From Chiloscyllium plagiosum (taxonomy: Eukaryota): 64,000 bases of DNA. This document shows, one piece after another, positions 3,276-52,168 of the stretch (positions within the stretch are counted from its first letter, which is position 1; the number at the start of each line of letters is the position of its first letter). The notes beneath the pieces are model-generated. The model was not told the DNA's origin, did no database searches, and saw only the letters and a list, made by a program, of their open reading frames with translations. Position numbers and translations under genes: made by a program. The stretch covers positions 2,854,776 to 2,918,775 of the forward strand of contig NC_057756.1 of NCBI RefSeq assembly GCF_004010195.1. The letters are read 5' to 3'.

Positions 3276-3311
3276 AACTGACCAAATGTGAAGATAATCA
3301 AAAGTCTGCAG
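3276..3311 (+). CDS. Micro-exon 1 (36 nt, phase 1-1) of a coiled-coil-encoding gene; (E/K/Q)LTKCEDNQKSA
   Basis: Poly-T tract ...tttttttatttggattgaag acceptor, strong CAG|gtaaga donor, open frame; matches the 36-nt module pattern (L2, C5). Confidence 0.75.
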
Positions 3312-3464
3312 GTAAGAGGAGTGACACTGTTCTCTATTGCTACTGATGAAAGGAGGAAAGATGTTTGTCGTCGTGTTTAGAACAGAAAGTTTGATCCCAG
3401 TAAAGAACTCTCTTCACTTCGTGATCCGCTATAATGAATAATACTGAACACGGCTTTGTGTGCA

Positions 3465-4705
3465 GAAAATAGTGTCTTACTAATGTGTCCGATTTTTGAA
3501 GAGGTTAACATGAAGTGTGATGCAGGCAGAGCAGAAGGCATTGACTGTACGGACTTCAGCAGAACATTCTTCAAGAGTTCACGATGTACACTGTTAGTAA
3601 TGCTATGTCACATGGAATTCATGCAGTTACCACATTTGATACAAATTTGCTTTGAAGGTCGGAGACGGGATTTGTGGTCGAGGGTTGTTTTTCAGAATAG
3701 ATACGTATGATCAGCGGTATGCCGCACGATCAGTGCCCTATCTCCGAGGTACTGCATTTGCATAAATGGTTTGCATGTGTGTATAGGAGTTGCCGTGGGT
3801 AAATTTGCAGACGAAACCAAATTAGATTGTGTGGTGCAGAACGAAGATTAGCGCAGAGCACACTAGGAATTTGATAAGATGGCCCAATGGACTGAGGAGT
3901 GGCAGACGAAATTTAAGTTAAATAAATGTGAGGTGTTGCATATTTCAAAAGCAAACCAGGTCAGGAGTTATGCAGTTAATCTCAGACCCTTGGAAGTGTT
4001 ATTGAACAAGGAGATCAAGAGGTGCAGGGACATATTTCATTGGAAGCATACTCACATATGGACAGGGTGATAAAGAATTGTTTGACACACTTGCCCTCAT
4101 TTGTCAGAACATTGAGCATAGCAGTTGGGATGTTTTGATGAGGTGATAAAGTGCGTGGGTGAGGCCACTTTTAAAAGGCTGCATCAAGTTTTGCCCGCCC
4201 TAATAGAGGAACATTTTTTTTAACGTTGAATGGGTGCAGTAATCGTTTACAAGGATGTTGTCGGGATTTGATTGATATAAAAACGCTAAATTCGGTGCGG
4301 TTTGAATTTTTCTGGATGCTTGGAGTCTGTGGCATGACATTACAGTGTTAATTTACAGTAATGCTGTGCATAGATTGGAGAAATAGCCAAATGATCTTTT
4401 CTGGAGGGAACAGAGAAGACGAGAGAACACAGTTCCAAGGCGACAGGCAAAGGATTTTTTAAAAATGTAAAGTTTGTTTTTCTGCATGTTTGTGAGCATG
4501 CATGAAGCCTTTCGGAAGAAAACATAGTGGAAATGGTTACAATTTAAACATTTATAGACATCAGCAGGGGATCGATGAATACAAAGCCTTTAGAAGGACA
4601 TGAGTCATATCCTGGCAATTGGTGCGAGGTCAGATTAGAATTCTGTTTGGGCGCAAGCAAGTTGTATTGATGGATTTCTGTGCAGCATGGCTCTATAAAT
4701 CTATG
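3465..4705 (+). mobile_element. Decayed CR1-type LINE, 3' part of ORF2 (RT) plus 3' tail
   Basis: Remnant peptides FEEV..CD.GRA..DFS, KFADETKL, WQTKFKLNKCEVLH; ends in a ctctataaatctatg-type tail. Confidence 0.85.
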
Positions 4706-6206
4706 TGGACGTAAAATGTGAAGAAGCAGGTTGTACTTTGGAAGTAAGTATCAGAAACTGCTAAAATTTAAATCGATTTTATGTAACAAAAAGAGCAATT
4801 GCGCTGTTAGGTAAATTTCTTTCTGAAGGATATTTGGAATCGAGTAACAATAGTCAAACTGAGTTATATTTTAAGGTAGTCTGGAACGTAAACTACCTTA
4901 ATACAATGTTTGGTCTTCAATGTGAAAGAAATGCATCTTTGATGTTTTGATACCTCCAGCCATGGCAGGTAGACGTTTGAGAAGCGTTTGTTTGTTTGTT
5001 TGATGATCGTCACGTATAATAAGATAAAACTGTTGAGCTTCATCAAATGTTTGGTCGATTCTACAGTTCATAATCACACAACACTGTATGCCGACAGAAA
5101 AAAAAGGAAGGTCAATTTGGTAATAAGATCAGCATAGTCAATCTATTTACATTAAGACATGATAAAAATGTGCAGACAAACAACAAACATATTGGACAGT
5201 TATGCATGATTACAAAAGCAGGCGGGAGATACAAAACAATTGCGATCCATATGTATTTAACAAGGAAAAACATACTTTGGTTTTGATTTTGTGTAGAATA
5301 TGACGACATTTCGAGTTAATTTAATGCTAATCGTCACTGAGATGGAGGTCCGAAACAAATTGTGGTAATACTGTACTGCGTAGTTGCAGGGTTAAGTTTT
5401 ATTTTTTGCAGCGAATGATCATGAGGAACATACATACTGAAGCACGACAGGTGGGGGCGGAGAAAGTGTCTGAGTGTTTTGATTATGTCACTGATGCAGG
5501 GATCTGTAAACTAGTTAAATGATTGCATAAAATGCTGACTCTTTTCCTATAAGGAGCTAAATGACAATCCAATCAGCAACAAAGCACACAATGTGAATTT
5601 TCAGTGACCTCCCAATCTTACATAGATTGCCAATCAATTCCATATTTTCATTTGATGTGCCATAACGTTGTTGTGAATTTGAGATAGAAGACTTCATTTT
5701 CATTTTTCATTCCGAAACATGAAGTCGTAGTCCACTCTGAGAAGTCCACTATACAATGTGAAAATCAATGAAGGCACATGTCATCTCATTTTGACACAGT
5801 TTTAACCATCTCTATTCAAAGTTTCAAAGACATTTTCCCCAAAGTAGCCAACCTAATAGTCTCTAAATACATTAGTGAGGAAGTGAACTGGATGTTCAAG
5901 TGCTCGGGGCATTGTTTCGGAATAGACCGAGGATGCTTTCGTAGGCTGTTAGGAAGCAATTAGTTAGAATAAGTAGTATATGGAAGATAGGACACGAGGC
6001 TGCAAAAGTCTATGTAACTGGAAGGAACAGTGTTTATTGACTAGTGGGTAGGGTCAAGGCTTTAGCAGGGCAGTCATAATGTACAATATGGGTAGGATGT
6101 CAAGTTAGTAAATGATGGAATAATAATTGTGACGGGTATCTTCTGAGAGATCGATAATTTATGTATCTTATGATGAATGAGAGTAAGTGGTTTGAATTTG
6201 GTGAAA

Positions 6207-6359
6207 GCTGGAAATGTGTTGCTGGAAAAGTGCAGCAGGTCAGGCAGCAACCAGGGAACAGGAGAATCGACGTTTCGGGCATAAGCCTTTCTTCAGGAAA
6301 TTCAGTCTCATATTCCTCCCTCCCCTTCCTCGACCTTTCTATTTAAATACGGAACCGAC
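6207..6359 (-). mobile_element. Penelope-like short element with hammerhead core and 14-bp TSD
   Basis: Reverse strand reads cCTGAAGAaaggcttatgcccGAAACGTCgattc; direct repeat tgaatttggtgaaa at 6193-6206 and 6360-6373. Confidence 0.7.
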
Positions 6360-6647: not shown

Positions 6648-6700
6648 TATAGATTAGATTAGATTAGATTAGATTAGATTAGATTAGATTAGATTAGATT
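6648..6700. repeat. (TAGAT)n pentanucleotide microsatellite (SINE tail)
   Basis: About ten tandem TAGAT units. Confidence 0.95.
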
Positions 6701-11720: not shown

Positions 11721-11750
11721 AGAAATGCAATGAAGACTTCGCTGAGAAAG
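11721..11750 (+). CDS. Micro-exon 2 (30 nt, phase 1-1); EKCNEDFAEK
   Basis: gcttgtttcaacag acceptor, AAG|gtacga donor, open frame; aligns to the 36-nt module lacking its first two codons (C at module position 5, F at 9). Confidence 0.75.
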
Positions 11751-12448: not shown

Positions 12449-12475
12449 AGGTGGAATTGGCTAGAAAACAAAAAC
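12449..12475 (+). CDS. Micro-exon 3 (27 nt, phase 1-1); EVELARKQK
   Basis: ttttacccttttag acceptor, C|gtaagt donor, open frame; 698-nt intron after exon 2. Confidence 0.75.
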
Positions 12476-16915: not shown

Positions 16916-18587
16916 CAATAGAAATAGACAATAGACAATAGGTGCAGGAGTAGGCCATTCAGACCTTCGAGCCTGCACCGCCATTCAATATAATCATGGC
17001 TGATCATTCCTAATCAGTATCCTGTTCCTGCCTTATCTCCATAACCCTTGATTCCACTATCTTTGAGAGCTCCATCCAACTCCTTCTTAAATGAATCCAG
17101 AGAGTGGGCCTCCACTGCCCTCTAGGGCAAAGCATTCCACACAGCCACCACTCTCTGGGTGAAGAAGTTTCTCCTGAGCTCTGTCCTAAATGGTCTACCC
17201 CGTATTTTTAAGCTGTGTCCTCTGGTTCGGCACTCACCCATCAGTGGAAATATGTTTCCTACTGCCAGAGTGCCCAATCCTTTCATAATCTTATACGTCT
17301 CAATCAGATCCCCTCTCAATCTTCAAAACTCAAGGGTATACAAGCCCAGTCGCTTCAGTCTTTCAGTGTAAGGTAATCCTGCCATTCCAGGAATTGACCT
17401 CAATAGAATGTCTTTTCTCAAATTTGGAGACCAGAACTGCACACAGTACTCCAAGTGTGGTCTCACCAGGGCCCTGTACAGCTGCAGAAGAACCTCTTTG
17501 CTTCTATACTCAATCCCTCTTGTTATGAAGGCCAGCATGCTATTAGCCTTCCTCACTACCTGCTGTACCTGCATGCTTGCCTTCATTGACTGGTGTACAA
17601 GAACACCCAAATCTCTNNNNNNNNNNNNNNNNNNNNNNNNNNNNNNNNNNNNNNNNNNNNNNNNNNNNNNNNNNNNNNNNNNNNNNNNNNNNNNNNNNNN
17701 NNNNNNNNNNNNNNNNNNNNNNNNNNNNNNNNNNNNNNNNNNNNNNNNNNNNNNNNNNNNNNNNNNNNNNNNNNNNNNNNNNNNNNNNNNNNNNNNNNNN
17801 NNNNNNNNNNNNNNNNNNNNNNNNNNNNNNNNNNNNNNNNNNNNNNNNNNNNNNNNNNNNNNNNNNNNNNNNNNNNNNNNNNNNNNNNNNNNNNNNNNNN
17901 NNNNNNNNNNNNNNNNNNNNNNNNNNNNNNNNNNNNNNNNNNNNNNNNNNNNNNNNNNNNNNNNNNNNNNNNNNNNNNNNNNNNNNNNNNNNNNNNNNNN
18001 NNNNNNNNNNNNNNNNNNNNNNNNNNNNNNNNNNNNNNNNNNNNNNNNNNNNNNNNNNNNNNNNNNNNNNNNNNNNNNNNNNNNNNNNNNNNNNNNNNNN
18101 NNNNNNNNNNNNNNNNNNNNNNNNNNNNNNNNNNNNNNNNNNNNNNNNNNNNNNNNNNNNNNNNNNNNNNNNNNNNNNNNNNNNNNNNNNNNNNNNNNNN
18201 NNNNNNNNNNNNNNNNNNNNNNNNNNNNNNNNNNNNNNNNNNNNNNNNNNGCCCCGGAGGCTTATCAACCTTCAGACCTAACAGCTTCTCCAACACCAAA
18301 TCCTGGCAAATATAAATTCCCTTAAGTTCAGGTCCTTCAGCTACTGTTACCTCAGGGAGATTGCTTGTGTCTTCCCAAGTGAACACAGATCTGAAGTACC
18401 CATTTAATTCCTCCATTTCTTTGTTCCTAGTAATATATTCCCCTGTTTCTGTCTTCAAGGGCCCAATTTTTGTCCTAACCATTTTTTTTGCCTTGCACAT
18501 ACCTAAAAAAGCTTTTACTATCCTCCTTAATATTCTTGGCCAGTTTACCTTCGTGCGTTATTTTTCCTCTGCGTATTTCATTCTTAG
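16915..18587 (-). mobile_element. Young CR1 LINE nested in the older CR1; spans an assembly gap
   Basis: Well-preserved [19 protein letters not shown] and LNGYFRSVFT peptides; tail seen as (AGACAAT)n near 16915-16940. Confidence 0.9.
17617..18250. other. Assembly gap (N run)
   Basis: Run of n characters. Confidence 1.
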
Positions 18588-21500
18588 TAACAAGCAGGAG
18601 AATTAGGGCTAAGAAACTTAGCAGAAATGAATAAATGGTGGAGCAGACTCAATGTGCTGAATGGCCCCTAATTTCTGTTTCCACGTCTTATTGTCTCTTT
18701 GAAATTGATGCATCCAGCGATTATGCGAAGACTATCACAAAGGCAATGCTATTACAACATTGGATTCACCTGGTCTTCGACGTTTGTAAGACTGCAATGA
18801 GAATTTGAAAAAAAGCAACTTGCATTTAACATTTCGGCATACTCGGGATCCTAACAGTTAACACTATCTGAAAGAGCAAAGACAATGTCAGCTTTCATGA
18901 TTCCGAATGGACTGCAACACATTAAATGCCTGCCATTTGTACGATAAATGCAGCAGCCACATTTCAAAGTTAAATCATCAATATATTTTCGGAATCATCC
19001 AAATGGGCAGTGTACAATGTTGGTCTGTTGATTAAGTCACACATGCAAGTAACATTAGGAGCTTCCATCGGAAATTTTGAATCAACATCAGGAGGGAATG
19101 TATAATGCGTTGTTCTTGGAGAGTTCCACATCAATCGACGAAGAGTAAGTACAATTCCTAGGTCTGAGTGTCTTTTTTTTAATCAGAGTTTCGCACCAAA
19201 ATTTAGCAGTGTACTTGCTCGACGAACTAGCTTTTTCAAGAAGTGTTATGCACATGTCACTACATCGCGCTATTCAACATGTGTATCGATGTGGCTGATG
19301 TGGGTGTCAAGGTGCACGCTCTCATGAAGATGATAATAATATGGAAAGACTTATTTGGCATCTTAGATACAGAAAATTGAACAATCAACAAGATAAGTTA
19401 CACACAATTGAAAAGGAGATCTGAATCTTGCTGTTCACATTGCACATTTTGAACATGAATATTGCCAGTAAGATGACTGAGATATTTACATACCCTGATC
19501 TTAACATATTGGAGACGAAAAAGAATGAAAAATGCAGACAGTTTAGAATGAACGTTTTTTTTATAACATTCAATTTCAAAATTATATTCTGGGAAGGATT
19601 ATAGAATGTAATTGCTGAAACGTTGTCGTCACTGTTATGAAGGAAGTCGAATGCGTTCATTGGCGCGACAATATGATTAAAATGGATTGCAGGAGTGAAT
19701 ATTTGCATGTTCAGATCTGATGGCATCCAGTTGCACAGTAGTGGTAATAGTGTGAGGCTGAAGTTGTGTTTCTGTATAAAGTGAATTTACTTTTGTATAT
19801 TGTTAGTTAATTTTCTGAAAGGGAAAGTGTGACGAATCTACGACTTTATGTTTCTTGGAATGAAGAAAGCTTGAGACAGGTGCATCAAATGGTCTGCTCA
19901 AAGGAAATGAATGAACAGCTGGTGAGGCATTTTTTTAAAAAAGAGGTACAACAGAAGCAGCCTAAATTGATGTGTTCATAACTCCAAAAAAACAGGGCTT
20001 TTATTTTTTTGGTGTACACATTTGCTGGGATTCTGGAATTGGATGTTGAAGATTGTCGCCCTCTCTCCGTTACAATTAAAGTTAGGGTCACATCATGCTG
20101 CTCGAAATGCATGTGAGACAAACTATATTGAATATGCCTTTGCCAACTCTGTGCTTGGCGAAGCTAAACTAATAGGGATGGCGATAGAGTGCAATAGATG
20201 CCGTTATCCTTTCAAAACAATGCAACTACCTCACTCGCTCTGCAGAACCAAAAAAGCGTTCGGATCAACAGTACCCGCATTGTCACTGGTAAGTTTACTT
20301 GTTTAACCAAGTTCTCAAGTGAAATGAAAGGCTTAAACATCCTTTTTAGTCGGACTTGGACAATGCTTGTCCATATTTTAACAGATCCCAATCATGTAAT
20401 TTACTTTGTTCGGATTGCTGTCAAATTCTGTTCTTATCGATACTCCTTGCTTTCACTTCGACATTCGCTGTGCCTTTTAATTTAACTGTTCTGTAATATT
20501 TTATCAAAAGATTGCACATTTTCAGAATTTACTTCTCATTTCGTTTGCATTCATTTAGCCACTGTCGTCATCACAGTTTTCTTTTGACCTTGTTTGTCTT
20601 TATTCTTTTGTATGCTTGTTTATTCATTAATAAGTTGTTTTCATCTTTCTGTGTATCTACCTTCCTTTATTACTGTCTGACGTTCTTGCCATAATTAATC
20701 AGTAACTCTTTGAGTTCTTCTTTCATATCTACCTTAATTCTCATACTGTATCTTCCTGAATTGCTCCGTGTTACATGCAATTCGTGAAACAGTCTTTGCA
20801 ATACACTCATTTCATGATTGTTTATTTAATTTTGTTTTCTTTGGTATATCTGCATCTCTTTCGTTTTATAATTTTGCTCTTTCAGGTTCTTTTTGAATTC
20901 ACTTTTAACCCTTTGTTCGTTCACACCCATACACCATCTCTGTTTGCATATTTCATCGAGGGTCTTTAATCATGTTAAATTCAAAATTCCAGGTCTACGT
21001 GATTTTAATTCAAAATGTTTATTGGGATTCACCAAAGCCACATTGTAATTCTTGTTGAAAAATTAGTTGCTTCGAGACATGTTGGATCATAGTCACTAAA
21101 AAGTTGATTGTGATCCAAGAACAAACTGGACAGATATTCTGATAAAAGAAAATGAATATGATCCTCAATGAAAACTAATCAGAGAAGTCAATTGAAATTC
21201 TAATTCATTGAATTATTCAAGTGTACTACAAATGATAATTTGAAGACTCAAATTATATATATGTATGTATGTATATATATTGTTGCGCACTGAACGTCTG
21301 TGTTAACTTCATTCTACTACCTCAGTCTAAGCTTTATAGTAGACAATATCAATTTGTACACAGAGAGGAAACGATTGCTTTGCAGCTTGCCTGTAATACT
21401 GTAACACAACTTTGGAAAAATCAATCGTTTAATTTTATTTATTGGTCAGTTATTTCCATCCCCTCGTAATCACAGCAAATATATGTTTACAAATCGAACT

Positions 21501-21716
21501 CGTATTAAAGCACTCCACAATATATGTTTATCTGTCCCACTGAACAGCATACTTTATTAGTGTGATTACCTAATGGAATGAAACAAGAACGGTTAACAAA
21601 ATAATGTTACATCAACTAAGACACGAATGGATACCCACTTTACGAGCAAAAGAAAATTGAATAAGAAAGAAAAAATCTAATAAGATCTGCAATTTTATGT
21701 TTCATTTCTTATTCAG

Positions 21717-21752
21717 AGCTTGCTGAAGCAGAGAAAAGGGTCGATTCAGTTG
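21717..21752 (+). CDS. Micro-exon 4 (36 nt, phase 1-1); QLAEAEKRVDSV
   Basis: tttcatttcttattcag acceptor, TTG|gtaaat donor, open frame, hydrophobic residues at positions 2, 5, 9 and 12. Confidence 0.8.
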
Positions 21753-22755
21753 GTAAATCGCTCACTGTCTAATCCAAACTGTTTTCTGTTGAAATTACGT
21801 TTGTACTCGGAGTTGTACTTTCTAATGATGAACACTGGCATTTTTGCAGTCACATATGTCGCTTATTAAGGAGTTCATGACTTGTCATTAAGCATCTTTT
21901 GCAAGTTATTTGCGATAAAATCATATTCTTTGCCGTTCTAATTTTGCATGTTCGGTGCTAAGATAGATATTTCCCTGCGAAATCATCAGGTTTCTTTTTT
22001 CAAAATATGCAAGACCTTCGTAAATTCTTCGATACAACATTCCGAACGAATGACTTAAATATTGCATTGACCACGACAGTGCATGTTTTCAATAAGGTTA
22101 GAAGTGGTTTGATTTACACGCCAATTTATGACATTCCCATTCTTAGAACATATCCCTGATATTGAGACATCTCAAACTACTTATTGAACTGTCCATCTGT
22201 TTTGTATTCTAAATTTGCACATAACTGTTAATCAACAGATAGAAAAGGAGAATTGTCACGAATTCGCTGAATTTCACAAGTTTTTTGATTAAACAAATGA
22301 TACATCAACTGCGAGCGTTTATTAATCATTGATTGACGTCCATGAAATTACAGCAACATGAATGGTACTTTGTCAGAAATTTACGAATTTAAAACTCTTA
22401 TTGAAACACTCCAAATAGCTGGTCACCTTGCACAATGCATAAGTTCTGAGAAATTTGGAATGGAATTTCATTTTTCCATTTTGCTTCTTCATTCTTCAGA
22501 ACGGGTTTCTGTCATTGTGCTCAAGCTGACTTTGAAAAATGCACTTACATCCAGAAATTGATGTATTTCTGCACTACTTCCGTTCGATGAGTTCAAGACT
22601 TCCTTCGCCATATGGTTCTAAACCTGCTGTATTGCTGTAATTCATTAAATTTGGGGTACAAAGTAACTTTATTTATGTAAATAATAACAGCTGTATATTT
22701 AGATTACGCAGTAAAATTTACTATCATTAATGCAATCTATTTATACACTTTACAG

Positions 22756-22782
22756 AAAGGCAGCTAAATGTTTTGACTGGAG
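22756..22782 (+). CDS. Micro-exon 5 (27 nt, phase 1-1); ERQLNVLTG
   Basis: atttatacactttacag acceptor, GAG|gtaaaa donor; 1003-nt intron after exon 4; continues the heptad register. Confidence 0.75.
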
Positions 22783-25149
22783 GTAAAAATAGGTTTTTCT
22801 TGCCAATTTTGATTGTTGGCTTGTCAAAAGCAACCTTTTCCCTTATATTTCTCAATATTTTTATTTCCTTTGTACTTCCAAACCTTGGTTCAGTGACTTT
22901 TTTTCGTCCAACCTGCTCGCAGAGATGAGAATGAACCGTGGAAATGAAGGCAAGCAACGATTGCATTAATTCTAGTAACCACAATCGTTATAATAACTGT
23001 TGTACAATAATAATTTTTCTGAATGTATTCAAGTCCTCTGCCAAGTAGTGAGGAAATTGAGCCTGTAATCATCAGAACATAGAATGAGAGATAATCATTG
23101 GAGACTGATGAAATCCTTTAATGGTCAGACAATGGATTTTTTTAACACCAAAAACATTGGGATTTTGAAGATCACAAATTCGTGTAATTTTCGACATAAG
23201 TGTGCAGTTGTTGCTCGTTAATTATTTACATTCAAAAGAGACGATCTTGTATGACTTGTTGCTATTGATAAACATTACAAAGCATATTTCATGGTGACAA
23301 CAGCTTGAATTAGCATCGTTAGTCATTATCACGACTAGCAATAAAGAGCCAGGTTATTTTTGATGGTTTCTATCTCCAAATTTTCATTGTTTGACATGAA
23401 TGAACGAAATGATAAAGCAAAAATAAACTAAAGCAATCGAGAACTGATGCAAAAAGTAAATTATGACGTTTTGGATTGTGTTGGGGAGACATTTCATCGA
23501 GGAATGTCCAGTTCTGTGTTCTGACGTTTATGCAGAGTTAATTTCCCACAGGTGTGGGAAACACCAGAGACCTCCCCGAATTGGGCTTTCACTTGGGGCC
23601 CTGTGGCCTTCCAAATCGAGCTCAAAATAGAGGTCAGTTTAACTCTACCTTTCCCAATGAATGCAGGAAATGCATACTGTGTTACATTAATTACGCACAA
23701 CACTGACATCAGTGCTTGCCACGTTCTGTTCTGGTCTGCATATTCAAGCCTGCGACGATCCATAATACACAACTTCATAATCAATCTTAGGGTTAGCGTG
23801 ATATTAACCTCATTAATTTACATTCCAACACATGCTCATCCTGGACATTTTGCGGATGCACCATACACTTGCTTAGTACAGATGATTGTTCGAATTCTGT
23901 TATAATATTCAGATTGTTGCTGTGTCATGATGCAGTATTGAAATAGTGTTCATTTCTACCAATCGTTATAATATTAGTACTGTCAGCTTGAACGCTGTTA
24001 CGTATGAAGTTACTCGCAGTTGCATTTGTATTGCAATTTTGTCACACAACAAATACTCTTGGGGGAGCATCTTTCATCTTACTCAACTTACATAATTTAA
24101 AAGAAGTATCTCTGTCAAGCAGCTGACATTTGCAATGTCTTCCATTTTGCATGCTGTAAGATGGTTTCATACAGATATTTGGTGAAAAGATGAACTCTAT
24201 TGCCGTTTCTTGAACTACTTTTATATAGCATATGTTTATATTCCTCCAATAGAAATGAAATTCAAGCACCATGAAACCTCCATTAAGTCATTTAAATGTT
24301 TTTTTTCAATATGTTACGCTATTCATAAGTTGCAAGTCAAGTTTATTGTCTCAAGGTTACAGCTACCCTGTATCACAATTGTTTCTATGCCACTTTCTTC
24401 ACTTTGTCTTTCTCTTAATACTCATATGGAAATGTTTGCTCATAACGTTTTTCATCATAACCTTCCCGGTGAGGAAAGAAATAGTCCCTAGAAGGCGTTC
24501 ATCGAGACAAGATTCTGCTATTATGAGATCATACTGTTCTTTTAATTCTTGCTAATCTGAGAACTTCCGGCGAACTGTTGCCAAACATTTCTTATCAGAC
24601 TGCCTCCAAATAGTATCTACCATCGTGAGTTTGTGCAGAGCTTCTGTATTTTAAAGGCCAGCTTCTGTGTTCTCACTCTATCTACCGTTTTAATTTGATC
24701 TCAAAACTTCAATTAGCACAATTGAGGATAACATTTTAATTCTGAAACCATCAAGTTAATTCTGGTGCCGTAGCTAGGGACGTTTTCTGTCAAATTTATG
24801 TCATCTAAAAATCCATGGGAAGACTTTTTTGCCATTTCTGGCAACTGGGTGCCACAACAGTCTTACATCTTCAGATGTTTTCATGCAGTACACTATCTCC
24901 GATATTTGTGGTCATTAATCTGCAGATTATTGCGATGTCAACCTAAGTACATTGCTGAGATTTTGGAAGGCTCCAGTTTGGATGTTTCACAGCCCAATGC
25001 TAACATTGACAAATCTTTTTTTTTGTCGCAGTGGTATAGCAGCTTTGACGCATTGTTTAATGAATGTAGGCAATAACTGAAAATAATTTTGAAATCTCTA
25101 GCTACGAGATTGCTGAGGGAAAAGAAAGAAAAATGCAAATCCATATTTT

Positions 25150-29640: not shown

Positions 29641-30244
29641 AACCATACTCACTCGTATATATCTCCCGGCAAATACAGCATGTTAAACTTGGTCAGAGCA
29701 ATTCAAACTGTGCATTGTGAATTGCATTTATTAGACTTTGTCAATCGTATTTCTTCGGGTTGGTATATTGTGGGCTGGCAATATCAGGACATATATTACA
29801 ATGTTGGCATCATTGCTGTTGAATGATGAGAAGCATCAGTGGTAACAGGCTGAAATCAATTTTCTAGTCGGAATGGGACATTGCACCATGCTTTTTTCTT
29901 TCACTCACTGTTTAAACCACATTGACATATGAGTAAGTTGCTTCTTGGATGCATGCAGTGGCACGTAAATATAAGGAACACTTCTGCAGATAAGCATTCT
30001 CATGCCACTCTTGCAATGGGAATTTTCTTCGAGGAAAAAGATTTGTCAGGTATAAATGAACTCAATGTGATAAAAGTGTTATTACTTTTTAACACCAAAT
30101 TATCAATAAGAACACAGCAGACACTTAATTTGATTAAATAATGAAATAATTTCCAAGGAGGAAGTGTGGAATAATTACCATGTTGATTTGAAATGAACTT
30201 TAATAATATCGTTCTGATCCAACAACTATTAATAATTTTAACAG

Positions 30245-30277
30245 GACTCGAAGAAATAATTGTGAAGCAAAAAGAAG
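30245..30277 (+). CDS. Candidate micro-exon 6 (33 nt, phase 1-1); GLEEIIVKQKE
   Basis: taataattttaacag acceptor, AAG|gtacca donor, open frame; resembles the 36-nt module minus its last codon (L2, I5; KQKE versus NQKS/NMKE). Confidence 0.6.
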
Positions 30278-30879
30278 GTACCACGTGGAAATCAATCAAA
30301 ACGTTTTGAAATACATGATTAACATTTCGATGCTTGCCTTCATTGGAGTAAATTAAAACATCTCTCTAAAAATAAATATTTTAACTTGCAAATAAAAAAA
30401 CACACCTTTGTGAAGATCTATCTACTCCGTTGAACAAAACATTCTATGCACTTGTCATTCACGACATACGACTAATTGATCTCGATGATGCAAAGTTAAA
30501 ACATGCCCATTTCTACTGGAGAATGTAAAAGGAAACAAAGACAGTGGACATTGAAAGCATCATACAAAGAAAAAAAATCTTTAAAAGAGTCAGACCAGTC
30601 AACCGGTGTACAATTTCATCTACTTTAAGTATTGCAATTGTGAATCATTTCGCTCTAGGTATTTTAATTATAATTACCAATATTATTTTGGATGTTCAGA
30701 AACTCAGGTTGGTGAGATCATTGCTGGACCTAAAACGTATGTGGACCTATCCCAAATGCCAGACCATGAATGTAATTTGAAAGAAAAAAAAACAACTTAC
30801 TCCCGCTCATTTTCTACAGAACATAAAGACAGAATATAAAAAAGACGTCTTTTTTAATAACGTTGACGGAGGATGTTAA

Positions 30880-31300
30880 TGTCATGGAACCAGTCAGACC
30901 ACCTCAAAACATTTGAAGAAGGTAGCCAACACGCTAAAATTTCTAATTGTTTTGAGCAGGTATGCAGTGGATATTCCAGGAGGGATGCAGCTGTTTTTAC
31001 CATTTTGTTTTTAACCATGACTGAAATTATTTATAAATAAACGAATGAAACGCAAACGAAAGAGAATAGCAACCTATCTGAAAACTTAATGATGCTGTTA
31101 AAACACGTGCAATAATCATCACAAACAGCCTTTGGAAAAAAAATAAAATCAAACACAGGGTCTTACAGGGGAGGGAGAGAGAGATAGATACAGAGAGGTG
31201 GGGGGTGAGATGGCAGAGAAATTCAGCATGGAACAGCTTCTTTCATGTGTTTACTCCTTTGACCAGCGGCACGGCACCAGTTTTGAGTTTCAGTCTGAAT
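30880..31300. mobile_element. LTR fragment related to the 10645-11272 LTR
   Basis: tgtcatggaaccagtcagaccacctcaaaacattt aligns with tgttatggattagaccagaccactcaaacattc, with scattered similarity downstream. Confidence 0.65.
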
Positions 31301-31779
31301 TGCATTGAACCCTCGACATGATGGACGCAGAACATGAGGCTCCTCCAGACCACAATGGTACTGCGAACAACATCCCACCAAGAACCACCTCAGAGACATT
31401 GTAACCTTGAAATTCCCATGGGCAATCAAACTTATTCGCACTTTGACTGATGCAATAAACCGAACGACTCAAAGGAAACTCAGGCAGACAAGGTAGGACG
31501 TTGAAAAGCAAAACCATCAGACATTGTTGCAAGAGAAGCCAGGTCACGAGCACTTTAAGGCTACACGGGTGGCCATGAGCGATGTGTGCCATCCCAATTT
31601 ACTTAGAAACTTGAAGTAAATTTTCTTTCCTGTTGGTCTATTTGCAATTTCTCTTCTCAATGGCAATATTGTGAAAAATAAGTAATTTTGAATCGATCAT
31701 TTCATGACACTTTCGTTTCTGGAATATAAAGAACAACTGGACCAAAGTTATTTGCCTCTTATGTGTTTGGAATTATTAG

Positions 31780-34700
31780 AATATAAAACATTGAACAATG
31801 CAGCACAGTACAGGCTCTTTGACACTGGCTGTTGTGCCGGCTTTATACTGAACGAGAAAAACAAACTATCTTACATAATCTACATTTTACTATCATCCAT
31901 GTGCCCACACAAGAGTCGCTTCAATATCCCCAACGCATCTGACTCTACGAGCACTGCTGGCAATGCATTCCAAGCACTCACCGCTGTCTGTGCAAAGAAC
32001 CTACCTTTGGCATCTCCTCTAAACATTCTAAATCACCTCAAAATTATACCACCTCATGATAGACATTTGCGCTCTGAAAGTAGTGTCTGCCTATCCACTC
32101 TATCAAAGCTTCTCATCGACTTGTATCCCTCTATTAAATCATTTCCAATTCTTCTTCACTTCAGAGAGAAAAATCCTAGATCCCTCAAAATTTGTTCTAA
32201 AGACAAGTCCTCAAATTCAGGTAGAATTCTGGTAAATCCCCTCCAAATCTTCTTTAAAGCTTTCACATTCTTCCTCGAGTGAGACGACCAGAACTGAACA
32301 CAATAATCCATGTCTGGTTTAACCAAGGCTTTATACCACTGCAGCATAGCCTCGTGTCTATTAAACTGAAACGCTCTGCTAATGAAAGCCAACTCACCAT
32401 ACGCCTGTTTAACAGCCCAACCAACGTGGTTGGCAACTTTGAGGGATCTGTAGACAAGGACCTCAAGATCCCTTTATTCCTCCACTTTCAAGAAAGCTGC
32501 CTTTAACCCCGAAATTTGCATTCAATTTCACCATCCCAAAATTAATCTGTTCGCACACGGCCAGTTTGAACACAATTTTCTAAGCCCACCTCTGCCTCCT
32601 CTCAATGTGTCATTGCAAGCTACAGCAGCCCTAAGCACTATCCAAAACAACCCATCAAACCTTAGTGTCGTTGTCAAATTTAGTAACCTACCCTTCCACT
32701 TCTTATTCCAATTTATTTATAACAAAAAATTACAAAGTGCAGAGTTCCCCGAATAGATTTCTGCAGAAAACCACTGGTCACCCAGCTCCAGGCTGAATGC
32801 TTTCCATCTAATACCACTGTCTGTCTTCAAAGCGCCAGCCAATTATATATCCAAACAGACACATATCCTGCATTCCATGCCTCCATAATTACTGAATGAG
32901 CCTTCGGCAGGGAAACTCCATATGCACCATATCAACTGCTGCACCTTCATGAATCTCTTTGGTCGCATTCTCAGAAAGGCTTTTGAGGCATGTCCTGCCC
33001 CTCACAAAGGCATGATGACTTTGTATAATAAAACTATGGCTTCCTAAGTAATTATAAATCTTGTTTCTCAGAATCTTCTCCAATGCTCTCCCCATATAGA
33101 CATAAGACTGATCATTCTGTCGTTCTTTGTGTTCTCCCTATTCCATTTATTGAATGATGCAATAATATTTGCCACCCAGAAAATCAAATGCTGACACTGT
33201 AGTGGACAGTGACAACGTAATTCTTCTTGCCAAAGGCGCAGCAATCGGTTCCCTCACTTCCCGTATTAAACTTGGATGTATTCTTTTGGCCCAGGGAACT
33301 TGTCTGTCGTGAAGTTTTTCGGCATTTCCTGAGCATCCTCCTTCTCAACATCAACTTGTTCGAGTGCTTTAGATCGTTTCACGCCGACTCAGAAAGGATA
33401 CGATTCGTGTCACTAGTGAATATTGAAAGAGAATATTTATTAGGGATCTTTCTTACCGAATTCGACTCCTTGCCCAGCTTTCCTCCAGTATTTCCAATCG
33501 GTCTTACCATCACTCTGGCCACCCTCTTCTTTCGTACATAACTTTTGAACGTCTTGGGCTACTCCTTAATCCTAAGTGCCAATCATAGTTCATGCCCCCT
33601 TCTAGCTCTCCTAAACTGATTCTTTTGCTCAATCGTTGCTAACATGGAATCCTAAAGAGCCCAGTCGGCTCCTTGTTTCCTTTAACTTAAGTATACTCCC
33701 TTCTTCCACTTGGCCAGAAGTTCCAAGTCTCGTGTCATCTGTGGTTCATTCGCCTTACAATCCGTTCCTTGCCTCATGGGGGCATAACTATCCAGGGGTC
33801 GCTGCATGTTCTCCCTAAAAATCCTCCATATTTCTGATGTGCATTCCCCGGAGAATTCCTGCTCCCAATTCATATTCGAAAATTCCTGTCAAATAGCAAT
33901 GTAATTTCGCCTCCCCGAATTAAATATTTATCCATACCATGTGCTCCCATCTCTCACCATGACTGTAGTGAATGTTAGAGAGTTGTTACCAGTATTACAG
34001 AAGTGCTCTGTCACTTAGAGATGTCACAGCTGACCTGGTTCTTTTTCAAGCACGAAATCCAGATTGGCCTCCACTCAAACGGCATATCAAAGTACTCAGA
34101 CAGAAATCCTTCCTAAATACGCTTGACAAAATCTGTTCCATCCAAACTATTTCCAGGAGGAAGATTCCAATCAATAGTAGGCAAGTTGAAGTCACCCATG
34201 AAAACAACACTGCTACTTCTTCAGCTTTCGAAGGTCTGCCGGCAATCGGCGCCTCTGTTTCTCTGTTGCTACTGGGTGTTCCATAGAAAACACCAATTAA
34301 AGCAGCCGCTCTTTTCTTGGTTCTGAATTCCATCCATACTAACTCAGAAGACAAAGTTTGCTCGAGGAAATCCATTTTCTGCAGCTGTTCTTCTCTCCCA
34401 GATTAGCTAACCACGCCCCCATTTATGTTAACTCCCTTCCACAATCTTTAGAAATATCCAACAACCATCCCTTCCACTATGATGTCCATGTTTCTACATT
34501 GACCACAACATCGGAGCTGCAAGCATTGATCCATGCTCGAAGTTCATCACCGACATTCCTGACATTTTTTACATTAAAACGGATACACTTCAAACGAACA
34601 CCGACTGCAACCTTGCCCTATCAACTGTGTAACCTTCCTCACACTAACCTCTGATCCTTAGCTCTGCTTCACATACCCCTGCCCAAACTAGTTTGTACCC

Positions 34701-34780
34701 TCCAGAAGAGCTTCAGCAAACCTTCTGCCCAGGATATTAGTACACCTCCAGTCCAAGTGAAAAAGTCCTTTATTTCAAAA
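31780..34780 (-). mobile_element. Decayed CR1 LINE ORF2 (endonuclease to RT) with 3' tail
   Basis: ELVWMEFRTKK..IGVFYG, QSHHAFVRGRTCL, YKALVKPDMDYCVQFWS. Confidence 0.85.
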
Positions 34781-37247
34781 AGTTAGAGACATAAATTGCA
34801 GATTCAGGAACCCAAGTTAGACATGCAGCAGGCCGGATGAAAAGAGCAAGCCATGCAGTATCAGGAGTCGAAAGTCAACGTTTTATGTGTAACTCTTCTC
34901 CAACAAATGTTTTATTACAAGGTGAACAACATTTTAATACATATTTTACAATTTGGCAACTTACACGAAAGCAATTAAACCTGATTGATCAAACAAATCA
35001 TTCGCAATTAAAATGACTGAGTGCCAACTAATTAAAATTACAAAGCAGTCTGATATTTAGAAGGCCGCACTAATTCACTATTGAATCTCTGAACTGAACA
35101 TTAGTAAGATAATCGACTTTTCTGGAACATGGTTAGCGTTTTGAAGAAGCACTGCATTATGAATTTACAGTGAAAAAGAATCTCCTTACTTTGTTTCCAA
35201 ATTGCCATTATATCGTCGCTCACTATATGAGCCATGATCGTTTCTTTCGTTGAAAATGTAAACTTAAAATTGTACATAACCTTAACAAAGCTCATTATTT
35301 CTGAACCAGCATTTTATGATCCTTGTGTGGGTGAATTTTATATTTAAGTACAGTTAATTGGAAGGAAGTTGAATCGAAATTATTCTTTTATAATAACAAG
35401 AGTCCTATTACAGGTCATCAGAATCAACCACAATTTTAACAATTTGTTCAAAAACTTCTTCTTTCTGATACATGAACAATATTACAAGTTAAGTTATAAC
35501 ATGATGACCCCGCTGATAATTGGAAGGAAAATGGATGTATCATCATATGTTTTGGGGATAAAACAAAGAATTTCAGAAAATAATTTATATTTTGCCCCTG
35601 CAATTTTATTTAATTTGTATCCTATTTAATGATGTTTGTCAAATTAGTGAAATTGACAATTAGAACGTCATTTTATTTCTTCTTGCACATTGTCGTGTTT
35701 TTACTTAACAAACTAGATATATCAGATAATATTTTCCCTATACTTACGAAGAGTTAGCACATCTGAGGTATTATTCATCAAATGAAGGAAGAAAATAAAG
35801 CTCAGCAGATCAAAAATATATTTTACCACTCCATCTTTCACCTATAGTTTGGTCATCCAACCTTCCTAACTTAAAAGATTTTGCAATGACCAAAGTCATT
35901 TGGAGTCGAAGGTTGGATTTGTCTACATTACGTTATCTCATTAACTTTGTAAAACAATGGGTATTTACAAACAAATTATTACAATTCTCTATTGGGGAAA
36001 ACTAAAAAGAGTCAATGATTTTTAACTGAAATTTCCTTTTCTATCGTCATTTTGAAATATTTTGTATTAATAGATTTGCCTTTCCCCTACTCCAGCAAGA
36101 CATCCCTGTGAAAATGTGCGAATAGATGAGTTCTCCTCCAGAATATTTCAAGTTTCCATTATATGCATGGCAAATGGCTGGGGTTGTGGGTTGGTGAAGA
36201 ATCACGGTGAGTGCACAGTATGGCATTTCTTTTTCAAGTTATGCACCAGTTCTGCATATAAAGCATCATATTCAGTTGAGAAATACTGCTTCGACTTTAA
36301 TTTGTATCAGCTTTCATTGCTCTTAATTGGGGGGTGGGGGCGGGGGATGTCAACTTTTGCTGTATATTGAAATGCAGGAGAGCTTCTTCACGCTATGAAA
36401 CATTTCAGGGTAACGCCGTTAAACACTACCTGCAGGAATCGTTTTGTTTCTTACATTCATTGGTAAAGGGTGCTTCGTATTATGCAATTCATCAGCCAGA
36501 GTCTCCTCTAACATATGCATCAATGTAATAATATCGAATTGTTTGTGAACTTAATTACATGTGAATTTAAGTTCAAGTCATTGAGAAAACTAAATGTTGA
36601 CGGTGAATTCCTCCCCGCACAAAGAGGAAGACAACGTGAAACGACTATTTTCATATGAAACATGCAACTCTATATGATTCAATAATAAAGACATCCGTTA
36701 CTTTCGCTGTTACATTTTTGTCCATTCCATGCTGGTACATTTTTGTTAGCCATTTTGTCGAATTAGCAAATGTATGCAAAAAATAATTGGCAAGATATGC
36801 TGCACAAAGGAACTCGAGAAAGTACCGTTCAAACTGATGTGTCCCGGATGAGTTACGGATGTGAAAGTTCCGTGAATAAGAACATATTAAATGGAAACAA
36901 ATTGCACCAATGCTGGAAATCTGAGACGTACTTAGCAAATACTGAACAAACGCAGCAGATTTGGTCACATTTTGCAGAGAGAAGCAAATTTCAACTTTAG
37001 AGTCTGGTACAATAATTACAATATACTGGTCTCAGCATATATTTCTCTTACCATACATGATGTCCTAACTGCTGATGTTATCAAGCATTCGTGTGTTCAT
37101 TGAAAATATTTCCTCTGTTCTCATAATCATGTCCAATGATTGGCATGCAGACTACTTACTAAAAAAATAGTTTTCGAAACTTGTTGCTTTAAATACTGCG
37201 TACAATGGTTTTACATCAATGAAGTCAAGTTTTGACTTGTATTTCAG

Positions 37248-37283
37248 ATCAAGCTAACTTATACAAAAACATGAAAGAAGTGG
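37248..37283 (+). CDS. Micro-exon 7 (36 nt, phase 1-1); DQANLYKNMKEV
   Basis: ttttgacttgtatttcag acceptor, TGG|gtaagc donor, open frame. Confidence 0.8.
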
Positions 37284-38383
37284 GTAAGCATAAAAAGAAT
37301 GTTGTATCCACATTGTGTTGAAGGGTCATCTTTATTTAAGGACAGAGCGATGGACGTTTTGACGATGTCAGTAAGAACTAGTAGAATAATTCAGAAATTT
37401 TGGCGAATATTCAATAAAATACTTCATAATATCGCTGAAAAACCTCGTTTATTTGGAGGAATAGAAACACTGATAGAAAAGCAGTATGTATCCAGCTCGA
37501 TATTCCCCAAACCTATGCTCCCACGATTCCTGCCTGCAATGTTAATCAATGGAATTAATATAGATCTGAGCATAATCAATCCATAATCCGAGTCGATGAA
37601 TGTTGGTGATGAATCTTCTTGGGGTATCAATCACAGACATTGAAATAATTGATCACACCTTCTCACAGAGATATGCCTATTTCTTTGTATCTAATGATTT
37701 CACAATGAAACTTTCTTTTGCACCGAGCTGAAACTTGTGTCTGGACAGTTAGCACACAATTTGCAAATGAGCTTGCAAATGAATTTGATAAAGATATACA
37801 ATTGAAAATATAGTTGTACAGGAAATGACAATTGGGCTCGGATTATTTGGATACTCTTGTCTCGACCACAATTGCCAATAAAATGAATCTCTCCAAAAAT
37901 TTTTTTTTTCTTTGCCTGCATGGTACAGAATTGAGTATTTTGAACCAGAATATCAAGCGTTAAATTCCTGGTGGCATACACAGTCGTTTAGTGACGTTTT
38001 CCCGTTACATCTTAAAGATGATATTAATCAGCAAAATTAACAGATGGCATATCTGTGTTTCCAGAATTGTCGATTGAAAGCAGCTTTGATGAATTCTACC
38101 AGTTTTTACCAAGGGACATGGCCTTATTCCTTTCTTTTCTGACCGACCACAAGAGTTTTGCAAAACTGACTGTACTTCTTCTAAGGTGATAGTTAAAGCA
38201 GTAGCTGTCTAATCTCTGAATTTCCAGATTAAAAATCAATGAAGATGTAAGATATGACAATGCGTATCAGCTCATTTTCGTTGTTAAAACAGAAATGTGT
38301 AATTTTAATAGAGTTTTTTTTTTAAATCTTCTTGCATATGATGTACTTCAAGTGAGTTACCAAGCATATGTTTTTCTTCACAG

Positions 38384-38410
38384 AGACGTTGTTGTCAAAT
38401 AAAACAAAAG
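38384..38410 (+). CDS. Micro-exon 8 (27 nt, phase 1-1); ETLLSNKTK
   Basis: tgtttttcttcacag acceptor, AAG|gtaaag donor; 1100-nt intron after exon 7; contains an N-K-T sequon. Confidence 0.8.
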
Positions 38411-39525
38411 GTAAAGCCTTTGCACAATCATGTCACACAATTCGACAAATGTTGAGGGGGTTGATATTTTTCCATAAGAAGAGACGGGTAAATGGAGGAA
38501 AAAAGAGATTGAAATGGACATTTTCTTCTTTGATTCTCACAATCTTATTTAGTTTGTCGTTACTAGGATGCATCGGCCAGTGAATAGCAAGTTGTTTTCA
38601 GGCACATTGGTCTTACTCCAAAATTACGTACAAACCTTTGTCGAGTCCACAGAGGATGGCGCCCCTAAATGTTGCTATGATTGGTGGTAAAATGAATTGT
38701 CACCTCGCTTTTCGAACGTAATTATTAATAGTCATTTTGTAAATTAATGTGAAAAAGTTCTGTCGGACTCAATTAACAGTCGTTTCGCAACCTACACATC
38801 CTGAAAATCGAAACTCATAAGTGTATATTTACTTTTAATACAGAACATATTTTTATTTACTTCATATTTATGGGTATTTCTAGGATTAATCTCACCAATT
38901 ACAATAACGCCAATTTCAATACTAACACCATCACTAATCATAGTATTAATAGTAACACTAATATTATTGTCAATAATAAAAATAAAGTAATATTAAAAAA
39001 GATATTTTTTTAAAACTGAAATGACTTTCCCAGTATTAATATCAAATATAGAACTAATAATAAATTTTAAAGAAAACAACTACTATTAAAATCGCATTAT
39101 TATTATTATTAAGGTATTATTCCAGACTCGGAAATCTATTCTGATTATGGGGTTCAAAGACTGCCAACGTAATTCAGGGAGGAAGTATGCTTCCCTTGTC
39201 CTCTCTGCCGTTAACTTGACTCAAACACACAGCAGCACGTTTGAATCCTAAATCTCATTTTGAAAATTAATTACCGGCACGGCTTGTCAAACCTGAGCAT
39301 TTGTGGGTGCATTATAATGATGTTTTTGTATTTATATCTAGCTGCGATTGCAGTCAAAATTTAATGACCTTATCTTTCAGAGGACACATTCTACATTCCT
39401 ATAGATTTCTACTGCTTTAAACTCATCGGCATAAGCTCACAGTTTTGGCGTAAGCAAATTCTGTCATGCAGCACTTGTTACATTGTATTCAGCAAAAACG
39501 GCAACACATAAAATAACGTTGTAAG

Positions 39526-50090: not shown

Positions 50091-50594
50091 AAAGCTCCAA
50101 GTGCCTCATTTAGTAGTCATTTAGCAGAAACTATGCGAGAGTTTGTTGCTCAAATATTTCCAAACATGTTACCAGTTCTAACATCTCTAAAGTTGTCAAG
50201 ATTATAAGTAAATCCAAAGCATGTAAAATAAATAATATAAACATTCACAAATTTGAATCGCACGTATCTTGTATTTATTTTGATCAACTGTAATAAAACA
50301 AGTCAGGGGACCTCAGTCTCGCATCGCAAAGATTTAACGGTGAACTATACTAACTAACAAAAAAGGATCATCTTTTTTTATCGTGAGTCTGTGTAGTCAA
50401 TGCGCATGAATAAGGAATTACGTTATGAAGTGACAGATTTAAATAATTGACAGTTATTTCTACTCACATTGGATACTCAGGAGTTGAAACGAAAATTCAA
50501 CATAACAGTTTTATGTATTCTGGAAGGAATACCACTTGATTTCTGGAGTTACCGTACTATTGCACTCACTTAAAATGACGACAGTGTTACATGG

Positions 50595-50830
50595 AGAAAG
50601 AGAGGACTGCAGTTGCTGGAGATCAGAGCTGAAAAATGTGTTGCTGGAAAAGCTCAGCAGGTCAGGCAGCTTCCAAGGAGCAGGAGAATCGACATTTCGG
50701 GCATAAACCTTTCTTCAGGAATGAGGAAGGTGTGCCAAGCAGGCTAAGTTAAAAGGTAGAGGGGAGAGAATTGGGGGAGGGGCGTTGGGAATGTGATAGT
50801 TGGAAGGAGGTTAAGGGGGCGGAGAGTGTT
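50595..50830 (-). mobile_element. Penelope-like short element with hammerhead core and 14-bp TSD
   Basis: acagtgttacatgg at 50581-50594 and 50831-50844; minus strand reads cCTGAAGAaaggtttatgcccGAAATGTCgattc. Confidence 0.75.
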
Positions 50831-52132
50831 ACAGTGTTACATGGCACAAGAGGATCGAGGCATGATCAATCCATTCATGACCAGTGGTGTTGTAATATTC
50901 TATCAGGTACTTCATATCTAAACAAGCGATTACACCATGTGGTAACAATATTCGTAGTGAATCAGATAGTTCAGTAAACTATTGGCTTTCGCCAAAAAAT
51001 GAAATATTAGCCATTCATCTCCCGAATACAGAGGAAAGTGAAAAGTTGCTGAGGTGAGGCTTGTGGAAGAGTTTGCGTAAACAGTATAAAGGGAGAAGAC
51101 AATCATCATTCTGCTACATTTCATACGACCTTGTGAGATGTGCTCCTTTTACTTTTCCTAAACTAGTTGTGAGATTTTAGCATCATATACGTGTAGAAAC
51201 CTGCATTTTTTCTCATTGGTTGCATGAGCATAGAAGCTATATTAACAAACTAAAATGGTATGAGCAGTGTTCAGTAAATGAGACAAAAAGTATTATTTCA
51301 AAATAAAACAATCATTTTCAGAATAATTCAGAATGTAGTCAATCCAAGAAAACGAAGTGCTGAAATACATTATAAGTTAATGCATTTGGATGAAGCATGA
51401 AAAACAATGGATGTGCAAAATAGATAGAACCGGAAGCTGAGATCACAAATATGCACGCACCTATATGAGGTGAACATTATCTTGATGGTGAAACATATTT
51501 TACTTGGGTAACCTTTTCATGCCATTCCCTGATATTTCCATCCATTGATTTAGATGAAGAAACATGTAATGAAAATAAAGATCTACAATGTCATAAGCAG
51601 TGAATTTGAAAGTTCCGAGCAAAGCACCAGCGCAAAAATATTGCTTCAAATTAATTAATATGCAAAATCTAAAGTACAAAGAACTATTTATTTCTGCGAG
51701 AAAAGTTTAAGTTGAACAATGCATTGGAAAATACAGCAATTTGGACTTGGCAAGACTCGAGTAAATCGTGGTCCACTGAAGGGATTACATAAACATTACA
51801 ATACAGCATGGGTAGTTTCACCAGGCTGTCTTATTTTGCACTTAACACTTCAGGTTCTCAAATGGGCATTCGGGATTGTAAAAAAGGAAAACTCAAAGCA
51901 TAAAATGTAACATTTAACCAATAACATTTATCTAAACTATCAATTTGGTTATTATTTGGATGGTAGTCAATTCTGGCAGCAAGAATAACTGGAAAAGTGT
52001 TCAAGACAATTATTTTCATGTGAATGCCAACTGACATTGATATAAAAACTAAACGGAAATCAAATCCAGCTGGAAATCGGAAAGATTGCACATTGGCCTA
52101 ATGTGTATGCGTTTTTTTCTCTCTTGTTTCAG

Positions 52133-52168
52133 ACCTCACCGAATGTTTGCACCAGTTGAAGAAACTAG
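52133..52168 (+). CDS. Micro-exon 9 (36 nt, phase 1-1); DLTECLHQLKKL
   Basis: Long pyrimidine tract gtttttttctctcttgtttcag, TAG|gtcaga donor; similar to exon 1 (xLTxC). Confidence 0.8.

Follow-up and report, generated by a model that had tools for sequence, protein, structure and literature searches.

A candidate array of symmetric micro-exons predicted to encode a long coiled-coil rod in the shark Chiloscyllium plagiosum

The stalk of CD23 (FCER2) is built from a few 21-residue repeats, each encoded by a single 63-nt exon, which are followed by C-type lectin exons. Non-fibrillar collagen genes carry exons of 27, 36, 45 and 54 nt, all multiples of 9 nt, whose borders split codons, and the micro-exon genes (MEGs) of schistosomes encode short secreted parasite proteins that have no coiled-coil periodicity. 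BG genes, of the butyrophilin family, are compact. In chicken, according to PMC5938342, the cytoplasmic tails of BG proteins are encoded by many tiny symmetric exons, whose first codon is split and across whose borders a true heptad pattern continues; these exons number 27–37, vary in number, measure 21 nt (a few 18 or 24 nt), encode one heptad each and lie downstream of Ig-V and TM exons.

We analysed a 64-kb stretch of C. plagiosum contig NC_057756.1 (the window) within 314 kb of sequence from the same contig, running from −100 kb to +214 kb; all coordinates are window positions, with negative values lying upstream and values above 64 kb lying downstream. Judging from the sequence, nine segments in the window are likely to belong to a very long plus-strand array in which every micro-exon is symmetric (phase 1-1). 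With roughly 30 or more exons over at least about 285 kb, this array would encode a long alpha-helical coiled-coil rod of a large, unnamed shark gene. The array resembles the chicken BG tails but its exon grammar differs. In common with those tails, as described in PMC5938342, it strings together many tiny symmetric exons whose predicted product is a coiled coil, the first codon is split (in all nine exons) and the heptad runs over the borders. In contrast to 21-nt exons encoding one heptad each, exons of 27 and 36 nt alternate, each pair encodes 21 residues, the introns measure 0.7–14 kb and the span exceeds 285 kb. With CD23 the array shares a three-heptad unit of 21 residues and symmetric exons, whose duplication or skipping leaves the frame intact, but here introns of 0.6–1.4 kb or longer divide each unit into 27 + 36 nt, the units are many and the contig yielded no lectin exon. 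As in non-fibrillar collagen genes, small exons with lengths in multiples of 9 nt and split codons form long arrays that would yield a rod-like oligomer, but heptad periodicity replaces Gly-X-Y (2 Gly in the 95 residues of the joined product). As in MEGs, symmetric exons of ≤36 nt carry most of the coding sequence and permit in-frame variation by skipping, but the locus is that of a vertebrate and its units are coiled-coil segments of 21 residues. A preliminary description of the window had pointed to the BG and CD23 families. We find no support for membership of either: exons of 27, 30, 33 and 36 nt stand in place of 21-nt heptad exons, there are no 63-nt single-exon repeats, and the Ig-V, TM, B30.2 or C-type lectin exons envisaged in the flanks were not found in 314 kb. 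Our literature search returned no description of 27/36-nt coiled-coil exon arrays, the BG papers alone being relevant.

The nine AG..GT segments of the preliminary description are all present on the plus strand at the proposed places, sizes and phase, with their exact limits re-derived here (Table 1). Eight of the nine peptides matched exactly. The e4 peptide, in frame at 21716–21751, differs from that given previously in its first residue alone; because this codon is split and e3 ends in C, C+AG restores the previously reported Q. AG precedes and GT follows every exon, the last base being G in eight and C in one, and e6 has the weakest splice signals. The joined 288 nt contain no stop in the phase-1 frame, as had been proposed, versus 8 and 9 stops in the other two frames. 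Purines (A+G) make up 66% of the exons versus 48% of the window. Using blastn, we obtained no HSP over any exon, and a genome search with a 1.6-kb stretch containing e7 and e8 returned one match, itself; this stretch is therefore single-copy, and no paralogue or retrocopy of the e7–e8 region was found.

Table 1 Candidate micro-exons in the window and their splice signals
Feature	Position	Strand	Length (nt)	Splice signals	Remarks
Additional candidate	2473..2499	+	27	Pyrimidine tract 0.75; donor GGTAAAA	Phase 1-1; 777 nt upstream of e1; absent from the preliminary description
e1	3276..3311	+	36	Donor GGTAAGA	12-residue type (L..C...); phase 1-1
e2	11721..11750	+	30		Off-pattern (10 residues); passes strict filter; shifts heptad register by 3
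e3	12449..12475	+	27	Donor CGTAAGT	9-residue type (E..L....K); ends in C
e4	21717..21752	+	36	Pyrimidine tract 0.8; donor GGTAAAT	
e5	22756..22782	+	27		1003 nt after e4 (exon pair)
e6	30245..30277	+	33	Pyrimidine tract 0.55; donor GGTACCA scoring 4/7	Off-pattern (11 residues)
e7	37248..37283	+	36	Donor GGTAAGC	
e8	38384..38410	+	27		1100 nt after e7 (exon pair); one N-x-T sequon
e9	52133..52168	+	36	Pyrimidine tract 0.9	L..C...L..L

In the core of the array, 27- and 36-nt exons alternate strictly. The shorter type encodes nine residues with the pattern [E/D]..L....K and the longer type 12 residues with the pattern [E/D]L.[E/D][C/L]...L..[L/I/V], and together (27 + 36 nt) they make 21 residues, or three heptads. 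The two exons of a pair often lie 0.6–1.4 kb apart, with 7–14 kb between pairs, and several of the 12-residue exons place a Cys at a core position. Two of the nine, e2 (30 nt) and e6 (33 nt), do not obey the alternation, and the register that is shifted by e2 is restored by e6. Each may mark a genuine break in register, be an optional exon or have been picked wrongly, the break at e2 being a stammer if real. Neither partner exons adjoining e6 and e9 nor larger coiled-coil exons were convincingly found.

In silico splicing of the nine exons yields a predicted continuous alpha-helical coiled coil, in agreement with the preliminary description, and the heptad pattern crosses the predicted junctions. 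The joined sequence is rich in E, K and L, lacks Pro and Trp, and has the periodicity of a coiled coil, with hydrophobic a/d positions over many turns: 17 of 28 a/d positions are hydrophobic compared with 10 of 67 others (heptad score 0.458). This score was reached by none of 5,000 residue shuffles and by 2 of 5,000 composition-matched decoy sets of nine taken from an opposite-strand pool of 59 members; none of these 5,000 decoy sets reached the 3.5-residue power. Permutation of exon order gave P = 0.025 for the heptad score and P = 0.0036 for the 3.5-residue power. As a set, the nine exons are not a product of chance. Omitting e3, e4 or e5 lowered the score to 0.323, 0.238 and 0.227, respectively, while omitting e6 alone raised it to 0.608. 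With both e2 and e6 left out, the series is strictly 9/12 alternating and scores 0.625 (22/30 versus 8/74), and with the candidate at 2473 added to the nine, the score rose from 0.458 to 0.485 without a change of register. When splice signals and composition were filtered loosely, 23 plus-strand and 11 minus-strand candidates remained in the window, compared with 12.0 ± 4.1 (maximum 27) in 100 Markov simulations, a plus-strand excess of only about 2.7 sd. Because this excess is modest and only six of the nine exons pass the filter, one or two of them could be decoys, with e6 and e2 being the weakest.

The count of nine also understates the array, since similar exons continue on both sides, from about −71 kb to +214 kb. 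In-register exons of like kind are found upstream and downstream, which bears out the earlier proposal that the termini of the gene lie outside the window. Across the 314 kb, splice and composition filters retained 44 candidates on the plus strand versus 15 on the minus strand, and 21 versus 3 when an initial A and a final G were also required; the best heptad-consistent exon chain over 264 kb reached 35.2 on the plus strand versus 7.5 on the minus strand. Twelve of 16 extra candidates start with A, which gives D/E after a G-ending exon, a trait that was not a selection criterion, and none of the roughly 30 candidate exons contains a stop. The upstream candidates at −16172, −12251 and 2473 share the local register of e1 and extend it (heptad scores 0.485–0.501), and a downstream 12,9,12,9 set at 125–142 kb scored 0.764 (10/12 versus 2/29). 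Some of the extra candidates are wrong, because the sets at −71 to −60 kb and at 153–159 kb scored poorly (0.203 and 0.323, respectively). The closest candidate to e9 is an exon at 136785 (BLOSUM62 score 24). In one duplicated exon pair, 158337/158931 versus 188017/189411, 21 of 27 nt are identical in each exon (78%), compared with 24–37% identity in the 100-nt flanks, and the changes between the exons are mostly synonymous or conservative in a codon-by-codon reading by eye, without a statistical test. Judged from these identities, the pair is an ancient duplicate in which the exons are conserved and the flanks randomised.

Across the 314 kb we found neither a first nor a last exon, nor any promoter or exon for a globular domain; the array may represent several tandem genes rather than one. 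The sole GC-rich island in a CpG-island scan (64.0–65.5 kb) was rejected as a promoter, being a Penelope-like retroelement, and a hydrophobic frame at about −66.9 kb was rejected as a TM exon, having no usable in-phase splice sites. Apart from one sub-threshold chance match, Pfam searches with 300 of the 578 plus-strand ORFs (≥60 aa, 314 kb) returned transposon domains (GDSL lipase, endonuclease-RT, RVT_1) and nothing else. Since Pfam gave transposon domains alone for these ORFs and the motif scans reported below gave nothing credible, we leave the gene unnamed.

Several alternative readings were weighed against that of a long rod-encoding array. It seems very improbable that the array encodes the extracellular neck of a type II C-type lectin receptor (CD23/DC-SIGN-like), a disulfide-linked oligomer that would hold lectin heads off the membrane. 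The 21-residue three-heptad unit has the length of the CD23 repeat, Cys recurs at the core position and e8 carries a sequon, but one sequon per 95 residues is, by estimate, roughly at chance level, and each unit occupies two exons rather than one of 63 nt. Moreover, no CTLD motif occurs in the 314 kb (to +214 kb), and of the 43 Lectin_C matches that the genome gave among the best 133 candidates scored, none falls on the contig of the array. Alternatively, the array could be the cytoplasmic tail of an Ig-superfamily (BG/butyrophilin-like) membrane protein, with Ig-V and TM exons upstream and a dimeric coiled-coil tail whose length is set by alternative splicing and read-through. Many tiny split-codon exons, a/d hydrophobic heptads across borders and charged flanking positions are indeed shared with chicken BG tails, as PMC5938342 describes them. 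We nevertheless regard this reading as unlikely, given the 27/36-nt exons, the span of the array and the Pfam results for 300 of the 578 plus-strand ORFs; in addition, no Ig-V-like frame (C..W..D.G.Y.C pattern) was found on either strand of the 314 kb, scans of the same sequence for B30.2, TM and TM+Ig exons gave nothing credible, and the only SPRY match on the contig, among the best 150 of 293 candidates, lies 1.66 Mb away.

The exons might also be chance AG..GT segments, or the remains of a decayed gene that is no longer spliced or expressed. In favour of this reading, a read sample too small to be informative from two single-cell RNA runs (~2% and 6% of raw reads), together with two contig sets, gave only repeat-like pieces at 24.7–33.3 kb when searched over 21000–39500, with none on e4–e8; about 12 decoys per strand pass the loose criteria per 64-kb window; and the 314 kb yielded no gene ends. 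However, just 2 of 5,000 decoy sets match the heptad continuity, the strand asymmetry over 314 kb is strong, all nine splice sites are intact, the candidate exons are free of stops and the duplicated pair keeps its exons while its flanks are randomised. Taken together, these observations make chance or decay a highly unlikely explanation.

If the nine segments do belong to a long rod-encoding array, any subset of exons would be spliceable without a frameshift, because every exon is symmetric. Heptad register, in contrast, would be kept only by 27 + 36 pairs (9 + 12 = 21), and single exons such as e2 (10 residues) or e6 (11 residues) would shift it by three or four residues. As the exons are symmetric and only pairs hold the register, splicing could adjust rod length by 21 residues at a time and introduce local breaks in register. 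The exon bodies, which are rich in purines, probably serve as splicing enhancers that allow such small exons to be recognised, and the recurrent core Cys suggests a parallel, possibly disulfide-linked, dimer or trimer. More tentatively, we propose as one possibility that the locus belongs to an undescribed family of vertebrate genes. Nearly all of a coiled-coil rod of several hundred residues would be encoded there by symmetric exons that alternate between 27 and 36 nt and extend over about 300 kb or more. The exons chosen would then determine both rod length, in steps of 21 residues, and, through off-pattern exons like e2 (30 nt) and e6 (33 nt), where the heptads break, making the protein a splice-programmable molecular ruler.

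If expressed, the array would be among the most extreme micro-exon gene layouts in vertebrates. It would offer a test case for how the spliceosome recognises serial 27–36-nt exons between 10-kb introns, and for the coupling of exon arithmetic (9 + 12 = 21) to coiled-coil register. Standard ORF-based annotators, and many alignment-based ones, would miss an array of this kind, and large shark genomes may conceal whole genes in micro-exon arrays.

The nine AG..GT segments proposed as phase 1-1 micro-exons (e1-e9) are real on the + strand: eight of the nine peptides in the preliminary description were recovered exactly and the ninth, that of e4, was also located, with its mismatch limited to the split first codon. 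This peptide begins with Q because e3 ends in C (C+AG). A pyrimidine-rich tract and AG lie upstream of each segment, GTA or GTC follows it, and the last exon base is G in 8/9 and C in 1/9. The claim of a stop-free phase 1 also held: the joined 288 nt contain 0 stops in that frame, whereas the remaining two contain 8 and 9. Purine content is 66% in e1-e9 vs 48% in the window. Between the exons, short introns of 698, 1003 and 1100 nt alternate with long ones of 7-14 kb.

Stop-free phase 1-1 AG..GT segments of 18-90 nt are common, numbering 2077 on the + strand, 43 of them with good signals. A loose splice-plus-composition filter retained 23 in the window on the + strand and 11 on the - strand, compared with 12.0 +/- 4.1 in 100 second-order Markov simulations. 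As this + excess is modest and only 6/9 of e1-e9 pass the filter, counting alone is weak evidence. The decisive evidence against chance is the heptad pattern of the joined product. In silico, joining the symmetric micro-exons in order yields an uninterrupted coiled-coil heptad pattern, in which L, I, V, M, F, Y or C occupies 17/28 a/d positions and 10/67 others. None of 5000 residue shuffles matched it. With exon order permuted, 2.5% of arrangements matched the heptad score (the excess of hydrophobic residues at a/d positions) and 0.36% the 3.5-residue power; for composition-matched decoy nine-sets, sampled in order from 59 opposite-strand segments, the corresponding figures were 2/5000 and 0/5000.

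Local register was analysed across e1-e9 and three further predicted micro-exons at -16172, -12251 and 2473 (window coordinates, minus denoting upstream). These three share one register with e1, e2-e5 are offset by three residues, and e6/e7 through e9 are back in the first register. Exactly two exons, e2 (10 residues, 7+3) and e6 (11 residues, 7+4), break a strict 9/12-residue alternation. Without them the series reads 9,12,9,12,9,12,9,12,9,12 and scores 0.625 (22/30 vs 8/74), while removal of any other exon pair lowers the score to 0.21-0.24. Thus, the core unit pairs one exon of 27 nt with one of 36 nt, giving 21 residues, or three heptads. Either the two exceptions are a stammer and a stutter that compensate each other, or they are cassette exons used optionally, or they are false picks; e6 has the weakest splice signals (pyrimidine tract 0.55, donor 4/7), and e2 passed the strict filter.

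Beyond confirming the nine segments, our analysis extends the original observation, as the array far exceeds the window in extent. Within the 3.56-Gb genome (window at G000:C47:2854776-2918775), we examined the window together with 100 kb on its upstream side and 150 kb on its downstream side (314 kb in total). When phase 1-1 candidates from 264 kb were chained with the heptad taken into account, the best chain scored 35.2 on the + strand (27 exons) and 7.5 on the - strand (14 exons). Over 314 kb, candidates with good splice signals numbered 172 on + vs 125 on -, falling to 44 vs 15 when coiled-coil-like composition was added and to 21 vs 3 when A at the start and G at the end were also imposed. 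Although A-start was not a criterion in choosing 16 extra candidates by hand, 12 of them begin with A, yielding D or E after a G-ending exon, as in e1-e9. The e1 register continues upstream into the candidates at -16172, -12251 and 2473 (heptad scores 0.485-0.501), and downstream, at 125-142 kb, a set of exons of 12,9,12,9 residues reaches 0.764 (10/12 vs 2/29). Low scores for two other sets, 0.203 at -71 to -60 kb and 0.323 at 153-159 kb, indicate that the candidates include some false ones.

The array also includes a duplicated pair of 27-nt exons. Each exon is identical at 21/27 nt between copies, compared with 24-37% (ungapped) in the 100-nt flanks, and a split ATG codon is kept at the second exon. 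The intron within the pair measures 568 vs 1368 nt, flanking sequences are unrelated, and no blastn HSP links the two regions (of 415 HSPs, none overlaps the 29 exons or candidates). Read codon by codon by eye, without statistics, most of the changes are synonymous or conservative, a pattern that would be expected of old exon duplicates under protein-level constraint.

Positions of individual exons and runs of N, in window coordinates
Feature	Position	Strand	Remark
e4	about 21716-21751	+	
Old duplicated exon pair, first copy	158337 + 158931 (158337-158957)		27-nt exons; in array, outside e1-e9
Old duplicated exon pair, second copy	188017 + 189411 (188017-189437)		27-nt exons; in array, outside e1-e9
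N run	17617-18250		634 bases; inside e3-e4 intron; could conceal sequence
N run	63503-63514		12 bases

Motif scans of the 314 kb for the Ig-V, B30.2 and CTLD exons suggested for the flanks found none. Pfam searches of 300/578 + strand ORFs of at least 60 aa, which took in every + frame of the window and ran from about -27 kb to +104 kb, returned only transposon domains plus one sub-threshold chance match. Scoring the best 133 Lectin_C candidates genome-wide gave 43 matches, none of them on this contig; among the best 150 of 293 SPRY candidates scored, one match is on the contig, 1.66 Mb away. The e7-e8 region is single-copy in the genome. A 20-residue, TM-like hydrophobic + strand frame, VVMLVAFVVLALLLFLILTT (about -66873), sits between two candidate micro-exons and lacks convincing in-phase splice sites; it is probably due to chance.

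The sole CpG-rich island found (64.0-65.5 kb) was ruled out as a promoter, being a degraded Penelope-like retroelement (about 64001-65700; GC 0.55, CpG observed/expected 0.86) with the look of a promoter island. Its long + strand frames include 'LLYIGETGRLLAERF', a GIY-YIG-like stretch. A + strand element of LINE type, at about -31 to -29 kb, has two frames with Pfam matches: the first is GDSL-lipase/esterase-like (E=1.5e-13), and the one after it is an endonuclease-reverse transcriptase (E=5.2e-13). At window 27426-27994, 21 single-cell RNA reads (run X5), all aligned only in part at 95-99% identity, and contigs of X7 pile up on a repeat; these look like transcripts from other copies of a repeat family, not from this locus.

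Among documented systems, the cytoplasmic tail of chicken BG comes closest: its 27-37 exons are each 21 nt long, their first codon is split, and the heptads run across exon borders (PMC5938342). The shark array works the same way as the tail so described, but breaks its defining 21-nt rule and has no detected Ig-V or TM exon. The earlier interpretation is supported in part. Further analogies come from the stalk of CD23, from the exon sizes of collagen and from schistosome micro-exon genes. The literature searched contained no account of coiled-coil exon arrays of the 27/36-nt type.

Judged from sequence, the locus is most likely a real, unusual, predicted micro-exon-encoded coiled-coil gene. 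Its product would be a long parallel coiled-coil rod. Symmetric phases would keep exon inclusion or skipping in frame, and because only 27+36 pairs would preserve register, length could change by 21-residue steps, with off-pattern exons introducing local heptad breaks. The purine-rich exon bodies probably serve as splicing enhancers. Five 12-residue exons carry a core-position Cys, which could cross-link chains, provided that the rod is extracellular. The rod may form a tail in the cytoplasm, a stalk outside the cell or part of the cytoskeleton.
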